Shown here: positions 50,078-50,258 of the stretch, one piece after another
How the letters are laid out: each line of letters opens with the position of its first letter
Numbering within the stretch: the first letter of the stretch is position 1
NCBI GenBank assembly: GCA_965248515.1
Contig: CBDFJU010000002.1
Location: forward strand, 878,847 to 942,846
DNA: 64,000 bases
Reading direction: 5' to 3'
From: Dehalococcoidia bacterium
GTDB lineage: Bacteria; Chloroflexota; Dehalococcoidia; SHYB01
The notes under the pieces: model-generated
Seen by the model: the letters and a program-made list of their open reading frames with translations, nothing else
The model's database searches: none
Told to the model about the DNA's origin: nothing
Made by a program: the position numbers and the translations under genes

Positions 50078-50106
50078 TTGATAAAATACAGATGCATAGC
50101 TATATT
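50078..50106 (+). promoter_or_regulatory. Near-consensus sigma70-type promoter (TTGATA - 17 bp - TATATT)
   Basis: Seen directly in an AT-rich stretch ~60 nt upstream of the tRNA-like gene. Confidence 0.5.
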
Positions 50107-50166
50107 ACTGTCAGTCGGCATATTGGTGAGACGCCGACACAACGCATGGAAGGAGGCGAATCACGC

Positions 50167-50258
50167 GGAGAGGTGCCGGAGTCTGGTCTATCGGGCCCGC
50201 CTGATAAGCGGTGCGAACGGCCACCACCGTTCCAGGGGTTCAAATCCCCTCCTCTCCG
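50167..50258 (+). tRNA. tRNA-like gene with Ser/Sec-type body and an Ile-like anticodon loop (CUGAUAA); identity uncertain, possible pseudo- or element-borne tRNA
   Basis: Acceptor GGAGAGG/CCTCTCC with discriminator G; long variable-arm hairpin ACGG-CCACCA-CCGT; canonical T-arm AGGGG-TTCAAAT-CCCCT; anticodon stem CCCGC/GCGG(U)G with a bulge; no encoded CCA. Confidence 0.45.

Follow-up and report, generated by a model that had tools for sequence, protein, structure and literature searches.

A seryl-type tRNA gene with an isoleucine anticodon in the cargo of a tRNA-Leu-associated integrative element

The subject of this report is a tRNA gene at positions 50167 to 50258 in a 64,000-nt stretch of DNA (hereafter, the window) whose host is probably Chloroflexota/Dehalococcoidia-like. 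The gene has a body of the seryl type that disagrees with its anticodon, GAU, which is that of isoleucine; it is located in the DNA of an integrative element, between a tyrosine integrase gene and the attachment-region motif beside a host tRNA-Leu gene, and it is preceded by a promoter-like site. We consider it very probable that this is a tRNA gene of the Ser type whose anticodon is that of Ile, and it would seem to be a natural anticodon-mutant seryl tRNA, a kind already known. What such a gene does is far less settled. We tentatively favor, as a possibility short of an expectation, the reading that the RNA would be charged with serine and act as a natural missense (mistranslating) tRNA; a second reading, nearly as likely, makes it a spare copy that has mutated and is inert.

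The tRNA body and its anticodon

Two independent calls support the gene. ARAGORN reports a tRNA-Ile(gat) at 50167 to 50259 on the plus strand (93 nt, the last base being a trailing extra), and a region-level Rfam run, in which 3 kb was searched, matches the tRNA family (RF00005) at 50167 to 50258 over the full length of the model (positions 1 to 71) with 47.7 bits (gathering score, 29; E = 2e-8), about the score that the same model gives the host tRNA-Leu(GAG) (48.7 bits). These calls bear out an earlier note on this DNA, which had read from the letters a 92-nt class II, Ser-like tRNA with a GAU anticodon; ARAGORN, which that note had named as a check, gives a match and one that is not a clean tRNA-Ser. 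When Rfam was run in gathering mode on the whole window, neither tRNA was recovered, while the region-level run recovers both (48 to 49 bits). The miss is a speed-filter artefact and no evidence against either tRNA, and the lack of Rfam matches in whole-window runs, a poor guide for tRNAs, should not be trusted.

The cloverleaf consists of an acceptor stem GGAGAGG/CCUCUCC (GGAGAGG/CCTCTCC in the DNA) with discriminator G73, a D stem CCGG/UCGG with the D loop AGUCUGGUCUA, an anticodon loop CUGAUAA (50201 to 50207) as in tRNA-Ile(GAU), a variable arm GAACGG-CCACCA-CCGUUC whose 6-bp stem and 6-nt loop place it in class II, and a T arm AGGGG-UUCAAAU-CCCCU. The 3' trailer is CAC, and CCA is not encoded. 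The minimum free energy (MFE) fold is the same cloverleaf (-41.9 kcal/mol; z = -2.5), the conserved tertiary positions are all intact (U8, A14, G18G19, U33, T54-C56, A58, G53:C61, and G15/C48), and so are the stems other than the anticodon stem. In the latter, C27·U43 is unpaired above the pairs C28-G42, C29-G41, G30-C40, and C31-G39. The bulge that the earlier note had needed to close this stem is thus real, and its top can be read in two ways: Infernal sets a C27·U43 mismatch above the four pairs, and the MFE fold bulges out U43 and joins C27 to the next G. An anticodon stem with four of five pairs formed is ordinary, being found in 26 of 118 phage tRNA-Ser(ACU) and 29 of 106 class II GCA tRNAs. 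Because the acceptor and T stems have 7 and 5 bp (7/5 geometry), with an anticodon other than UCA, tRNA-Sec and the allo-tRNAs, whose acceptor branch of 13 or 12 bp is divided 8/5, 8/4, or 9/3, are excluded, as the earlier note had already held for tRNA-Sec. Nor is this a class I tRNA-Ile(GAU), which has a variable loop of 4 to 5 nt and A73 where this gene has a long variable arm and G73; equally, GAU is not among the serine anticodons (NGA or GCU).

The seryl character of the body is borne out by its relatives. The first 29 nt, with the anticodon left free, were used as a query against the JGI metagenomes and recovered 59 loci, every one of which has a serine anticodon (GCU in 53, CGA in 4, and UGA and GGA in 1 each); the query is identical to the 53 tRNA-Ser(GCU) genes but for one D-loop base. 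Since all 59 relatives are serine tRNAs, the unusual D loop AGUCUGGU and the acceptor belong to a genuine soil-bacterial tRNA-Ser lineage. The nearest relatives are tRNA-Ser(GCU) genes, with 76 of 95 aligned columns identical (~80%). In BLAST searches against annotated phages, the best matches are tRNA-Ser genes, and the tRNA with its flanks recovers from phages and plasmids only generic tRNA-Ser or Paracoccus matches at 73 to 74% identity. The missing CCA is the family norm (absent from 49 of 58 relatives and encoded in 9). In Escherichia coli and Thermus thermophilus, the features that confer seryl identity are a long variable arm, G73, and the pairs G1:C72, G2:C71, A3:U70, and C11:G24. All four pairs are found here together with G73 and the 6-bp variable-arm stem, and the features read by isoleucyl-tRNA synthetase (IleRS) beyond the anticodon loop, namely, A73, C4:G69, and U12:A23, are missing. 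By homology, then, the body is of the seryl type and is a predicted substrate of seryl-tRNA synthetase (SerRS).

The earlier note had called the gene chimeric, with an anticodon arm of the tRNA-Ile type. That description is not needed: the loop differs from the CUGCUAA of the family tRNA-Ser(GCU) by one base, C35 to A, so that a grafted tRNA-Ile arm need not be assumed. The T stem (AGGGG/CCCCU against GUGGG/CCCAC in the family) has changed on both strands with its pairing kept, and anticodon-stem pairs 29:41 and 30:40 have likewise changed on both sides and are still paired. It follows from these compensatory changes that the gene is no recent copy of the usual GCU type but evolved as a structured tRNA, and they would fit a past as a working one. 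The 3' strand of the anticodon stem is shorter than that of the family: four bases (GCGG) stand ahead of UG, as against the five that lead up to the family's conserved U(G) and variable stem, and this can be read as a lost G or as the C27·U43 mismatch.

The integrative element and the surroundings of the gene

The features discussed in this section are collected in Table 1. The sigma-70-like site upstream of the tRNA gene, which the earlier note had already described as near-consensus, agrees with the consensus at 10 of 12 positions (TTGATA-17-TATATT), and the distance from the end of its -10 hexamer to the tRNA is 61 nt. A scan of 2.7 kb (49600 to 52300) retrieved only two promoter-like sites, each in the correct orientation and at a comparable distance before a tRNA gene, the second preceding the host tRNA-Leu; that both should land so by chance is unlikely. 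Between the tRNA and the ribosome-binding site (RBS) of the next open reading frame (ORF) lies, in plus-strand terms, a hairpin that is terminator-like on the minus strand. The minus-strand hairpin region, opposite the RBS and start of the ORF at 50338, could give an antisense RNA to that ORF. Rfam has a weak, sub-threshold match there to the small RNA family BjrC68 (50288 to 50370, minus strand; 22 bits against a threshold of 39).

The integrase is read as two ORFs separated by a single frameshift. The repaired protein has 375 aa and full-length homologues at 55 to 60% identity, several of which are named as Dehalococcoidia or SAR202 integrases, the one clue to the host; the public record holds a truncated protein of 272 aa (P0002). 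The frameshift is either a recent inactivation or a run-length assembly error. We compared the six loci (L427 to L432) of the four closest full-length integrase relatives. In five of these, the integrase is followed by the motif GATGTCGGCAAAATGTCGGCA and a convergent tRNA-Leu within ~80 nt (GAG in four and CAG in one), and in the sixth, one gene intervenes between integrase and tRNA-Leu. A direct-repeat motif, GATGTCGGCA-(A/G)A-ATGTCGGCA, is present between integrase and tRNA-Leu in every readable close relative (L428, positions 8137 to 8165; L431; and L432). In the window, it has the form GATGTCGGCA-AA-ATGTCGGCA and adjoins the tRNA-Leu(GAG), 2.58 kb from the integrase stop codon. In this Dehalococcoidia-type element family, the motif probably serves for attachment or for binding of the integrase. 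The 2.6-kb interval from integrase to motif contains, besides 860 nt of noncoding sequence, the odd tRNA with its promoter, a LuxR-type gene of 72 aa, and two orphan ORFs; the tRNA, lying inside this interval, is therefore cargo at the integrase-attachment junction of a tRNA-Leu-associated integrative element, which agrees with the earlier note's placement of it in integrative-element DNA. None of the six relative loci has tRNA cargo between integrase and tRNA-Leu.

The left boundary of the element is not fixed in the window. An exact 17-nt copy of TCCACAGCGATGTCGGC, from the region of the attachment motif, at 39638 is a candidate for the left end of a 12.2-kb element, uncertain because it lies inside a well-coding minus-strand ORF. 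The LuxR repeat described below stops at 39020. On the integrase side away from the tRNA, the 349-aa ORF includes a 33-nt tandem duplication (47447 to 47512) that gives the peptide GGQSIRQA twice.

The remaining cargo offers few leads. The 182-aa ORF directly downstream of the tRNA has the protein itself as its sole database match, the cargo ORFs belong to no family in Pfam, PHROGs, PADLOC, or NCBIfam, and no linked defence or toxin gene was recognized among them in these family searches. A direct repeat of 270 nt spans the first ~42 codons of the LuxR/GerE gene, the region upstream of it, and a hairpin that is terminator-like on the minus strand (51441 to 51706, repeated at 38751 to 39020 with 94 to 98% identity). 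Its right copy is intact and its left copy truncated, with an rve transposase gene (37226 to 38215) ~540 nt to the left of the latter; the repeat may be a remnant of an older tandem element.

Table 1. Features of the integrative element and of the region around the seryl-type tRNA gene
Feature	Position in window	Strand	Basis or remark
17-nt exact copy of TCCACAGCGATGTCGGC	39638..39654	+	Repeat search; second copy at 51880-51896
Primase-polymerase/DUF3987 replication gene of the element	44307..46823	-	Pfam
Excisionase-like HTH_17 gene	46762..47061	-	Profile match
ORF, 349 aa	Between HTH_17 gene and integrase		Upstream of the tRNA
Tyrosine integrase, two ORFs (48179-48997 and 49000-49305), one frameshift in TTACGGGCCACC (~48960)	48179..49305	+	Pfam, frame analysis
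Sigma-70-like promoter TTGATA-17-TATATT, 10/12 consensus	50078..50106	+	Promoter scan
Leader hairpin GTCGGC...GCCGAC, predicted 5' leader	50114..50138	+	Read from sequence
Class II tRNA gene, seryl-type body, anticodon GAU (50203-50205), G73 at 50258, no encoded CCA	50167..50258	+	ARAGORN, Rfam, fold, homology
13-bp hairpin with T-run, terminator-like	50297..50326	-	Promoter/terminator scan
Orphan ORF, 182 aa, RBS AAGGAGG, third-position GC (GC3) 0.72	50338..50886	+	Directly downstream of the tRNA
Second small orphan ORF, 73 aa	50894..51115	+	
LuxR/GerE-type helix-turn-helix gene, 72 aa	51581..51799	+	Pfam GerE, E = 2e-18
Attachment-region motif GATGTCGGCAGAATGTCGGCAA	51888..51909	+	Comparison with L428, L431, and L432, where the motif directly follows the integrase stop codon
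Host tRNA-Leu(GAG), CCA encoded	51964..52050	-	ARAGORN; Rfam match 51967-52050, 48.7 bits
Promoter TTGACA-18-TATGAT, 74 nt upstream of host tRNA-Leu	52153-52124	-	Promoter scan

Ser-shaped sequences with the anticodon GAU in other genomes

A pattern built on the loop CUGAUAA, with a D arm of the Ser type, a long variable region, and a T loop of the standard kind, for which ~1 match is expected by chance, recovered 86 loci, 67 of them in the 185,579 species genomes of GTDB and 19 in IMG/VR. The pattern also matches the tRNA of the window, whose source genome is not among the 67 loci. A strict Ser(GCU)-like GAU pattern has zero matches in IMG/VR. An intact acceptor, as in the tRNA of the window, is found at only 17 genome loci and 3 viral loci. 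Two of the loci with an intact acceptor (L005 and L050) are at an apparently canonical chromosomal tRNA-Ser(GCU) site beside tRNA-Arg(ACG), and three planctomycete loci (L025, L053, and L060) look orthologous and have compensatory anticodon-stem changes. The anticodon arm CCCGC-CUGAUAA-GCGGG with GAU is present in three unrelated genomes (L011, L044, and L061). Neighbor clustering revealed no gene shared among the surroundings of the GAU loci. Integrase adjacency is not general either: an iterative hidden Markov model search found 10 integrase ORFs across L001 to L137, one of which is the window's own, and among 10 sampled ORFs neighboring GAU loci, 1 is an integrase.

In the same survey, the acceptor stem was compared across anticodons within one search frame. 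The terminal 1 to 3 acceptor pairs are replaced in 62 of the 86 Ser-shaped GAU sequences, whereas GCU, ACU, UGA, GUU, and GCA sequences are 98 to 100% intact. An intact 7-bp acceptor is found in IMG/VR in 110/112 GCU, 118/118 ACU, 36/36 UGA, 52/52 GUU, and 106/108 GCA sequences, as against 3/19 GAU sequences (in 15 of which only the terminal 1 to 3 pairs are broken); in the GTDB genomes, the GAU figure is 17/67, with the terminal pairs only broken in 47. In every broken copy, two or three consecutive nucleotides at one end of the stem have been replaced; the mutations are never scattered. Plain copies left at attachment junctions should appear with GCU too, and none was seen in the search frame. 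The broken copies have perfect anticodon and T stems in 57 of 66 cases and tRNA scores of 36 to 47 bits; they form lineage-specific families (Pseudomonas, Acidobacteria, alpha-proteobacteria, Bacteroidales, Agrobacterium, and Cohnella), and many are in prophage or island DNA (broken examples are L034, 2433 to 2520; L010, 3236 to 3323; L064, 3220 to 3304; and L089, 3353 to 3440). Searched against sequenced phages, the Pseudomonas pseudo-tRNA region matched through its adjacent methylase gene alone, and the Rhizobium GAU example had no match among plasmids.

Class II-shaped tRNAs in general are common in viral contigs (L068 to L137 and L317 to L426), with 109 loci combining GCA with U73 and 53 combining GUU with G73; CysRS and AsnRS use U73 and G73, respectively, as discriminators. 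A phage array of 14 tRNAs (L087, 6109 to 9329) starts with a class II tRNA(GAU) that has A73 and CCA, and it includes no other tRNA-Ile.

What the tRNA may do

The most likely descent would be from a tRNA-Ser(GCU) gene in which a C35-to-A change put the anticodon GAU on a seryl body, the gene being carried, with a promoter of its own, in the cargo of the element. SerRS does not read the anticodon (PMC6125640, PMC11415595). As it reads the long variable arm and the acceptor with G73 and ignores the anticodon, the RNA would be charged with serine. A seryl-tRNA with G34-A35-U36 would compete with the genuine tRNA-Ile in reading AUC and AUU, and the result would be a low-level substitution of serine for isoleucine; as an informational suppressor, it could also correct AGC-to-AUC mutations. 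The cell would tolerate it only if its activity were low, a condition that the weak upper end of the anticodon stem (C27·U43) and the competition from the host tRNA-Ile would favor. The chemistry has a direct precedent in yeast, where an engineered tRNA-Ser with the anticodon GAU, exactly the anticodon seen here, inserts serine at isoleucine codons (PMC6125640).

Several observations weigh against such a function. The same yeast tRNA, tS-I(GAU), is lethal and ranks with the most toxic of the 64 anticodon variants (PMC6125640), which argues against a well-expressed, active copy. The gene departs from the family consensus at two places, A35 and the top of the anticodon stem (27:43), and both fall within the anticodon arm, where damage to decoding would be expected to show. 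To judge from the frameshift in the neighboring integrase gene, the element may be in decay. Finally, the search for similar sequences that the earlier note had suggested succeeded for tRNA-Ser relatives, which were found in phages and metagenomes, but not for a close GAU homologue, of which there is none in the 185,579 GTDB species genomes, IMG/VR, or the JGI metagenomes (the best GAU identity is 75%); the gene is thus a singleton, and conservation cannot be used as an argument for function.

These same points are what make an inert relic a serious possibility, almost as likely as the mistranslating tRNA that we tentatively favor. Here, the anticodon of a spare, element-borne tRNA-Ser(GCU) would have mutated, one nucleotide may also have dropped out of the 3' side of the anticodon stem, and the gene, now silent, unstable, or unused, would persist only because it is harmless. 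To the changes confined to the anticodon arm, the frameshifted integrase, the lack of conserved relatives, and the high toxicity expected of a fully active tRNA-Ser(GAU), one can add the great rarity of intact Ser-type GAU tRNAs (17 loci in 185,579 species genomes). Against decay stand the other stems and the conserved tertiary positions, all of which are intact, an Rfam score equal to that of the host tRNA-Leu, and an intact promoter-like site; moreover, a single frameshift is all that separates the integrase from full length, and therefore the element is not old. A more mundane explanation, that the real gene is an ordinary element-borne tRNA-Ser(GCU), possibly with a full 5-bp anticodon stem, misrepresented by an assembly or base-calling error, is in our view very unlikely. 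The integrase frameshift and the apparently missing G in GCGG-UG are run-length differences typical of long-read assemblies, the contig is 968,904 bp long, and the public record itself has the truncated integrase, but A35 is a substitution outside any homopolymer, which no run-length error would produce, and the arm shared with three unrelated genomes has the same GAU loop.

The remaining alternatives concern what reads or made the RNA. The gene could be a true, class II-shaped tRNA-Ile charged by IleRS through its anticodon loop. G34, A35, U36, A37, A38, and C29:G41 fit the E. coli IleRS identity set reportedly worked out by Nureki et al. in 1994, and viral class II tRNAs whose discriminator fits the synthetase do exist (GCA with U73, GUU with G73, and the one GAU tRNA with A73 and CCA in L087). 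The discriminator here, however, is G73 and not A73, pairs 4:69 and 12:23 are not of the Ile type, and the acceptor and D arm are identical to those of a genuine tRNA-Ser, all of which makes this highly improbable. Still less probable, and rejected here, is the earlier note's suggestion of an integration-site relic, i.e., a copy of a target tRNA left by integration. The gene does lie 860 nt downstream of the integrase gene in the same orientation, but it is complete, no piece of it is repeated in the window, and the integrase family attaches, with a motif of its own, beside tRNA-Leu and not tRNA-Ser. Specifically, neither the flanks (as 10- or 11-mers) nor the 3' end (as 24-mers with up to 3 mismatches) recur in the 64 kb in a manner suggestive of a direct repeat, and the 3' end of the tRNA-Leu is not repeated in the window.

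A role other than decoding is unlikely, though better founded than those two: the RNA might serve the element as a toxic or mistranslating agent (addiction, abortive infection, or host manipulation), act as a decoy for a tRNA-directed enzyme, or donate serine to a nonribosomal reaction. Its status as mobile-element cargo with its own promoter, the recurrence of Ser-shaped GAU tRNA-like sequences in prophages and islands, the lethality of tS-I(GAU) in yeast (PMC6125640), and the association of allo-tRNAs with an Ile (UAU) anticodon with toxin-antitoxin loci and transposable elements, some of these allo-tRNAs killing E. coli (PMC5389517), speak for it; the absence of a partner gene among the neighboring ORFs, which have no family in the four databases named above, and of any conserved neighbor shared by the GAU loci speak against it. 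Along the same lines, we regard as doubtful, if a little less so, a broader proposal suggested by the acceptor survey, namely, that element- and prophage-borne Ser-shaped GAU RNAs form an unrecognized class, with the gene of the window as an active member, whose intact form, seen here, would be a controlled toxic mistranslator (for addiction, abortive infection, or host manipulation) and whose broken-acceptor form would be a nonchargeable decoy.

Comparison with known systems places the tRNA of the window most closely beside the bacterial tRNA-Ser(GCU), with which it shares the class II cloverleaf, G73, the acceptor GGAGAGG/CCUCUCC, C11:G24, and the 6-bp variable-arm stem, and from which it differs in GAU (A35), the unpaired 27:43, its own T-stem and variable-arm sequences, and its mobile-element location. 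The allo-tRNAs, known from soil and sediment metagenomes and frequently neighbors of toxin-antitoxin loci or of genes related to transposons (Mukai et al. 2017; PMC5389517), are likewise natural, bacterial, and seryl-type, with a long variable arm and a nonserine anticodon that can be that of isoleucine (UAU), but their geometry is 8/4 or 9/3 rather than 7/5, and the anticodon here is GAU and not UAU. As in yeast tS-I(GAU), an anticodon change makes a missense tRNA of Candida tRNA-Ser(CAG) and human tRNA-Ser(AGA) G35A because SerRS ignores the anticodon (PMC11415595, PMC12993449); these variants are eukaryotic or engineered, whereas ours is bacterial, natural, and carried by an integrative element. 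Body identity and anticodon also disagree in the natural bacterial tRNA-ProX of Streptomyces and Kitasatospora (PMC11415595), a conserved family with a dedicated synthetase, ProRSx; for the tRNA of the window, neither a partner enzyme nor a family was found. Finally, in tRNA-dependent lysogeny (PMC10865867), a tRNA is likewise carried by a temperate element, one that a tyrosine integrase attaches at a tRNA gene of the host, but there the carried tRNA is of the isotype of the host tRNA that is destroyed. Here, the adjacent tRNA-Leu(GAG) is intact and the cargo tRNA is Ser-type with an Ile anticodon.

Few natural bacterial tRNAs are known in which body and anticodon disagree, these being the allo-tRNAs, tRNA-ProX, and some Sec/Cys hybrids, and a mobile element whose tRNA joins an Ile anticodon to a seryl body of canonical 7/5 geometry would be a simple test case. 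It raises the question of whether a tRNA spread by mobile DNA can change the meaning of a sense codon at a low level and of what the host or the element would gain or lose by it; the toxicity of the same anticodon on a yeast tRNA-Ser makes the tolerance of such a gene informative. Beyond this one gene, the survey suggests that, among Ser-shaped tRNAs, GAU is more than a chance variant of the anticodon, which, if true, would be undescribed biology.

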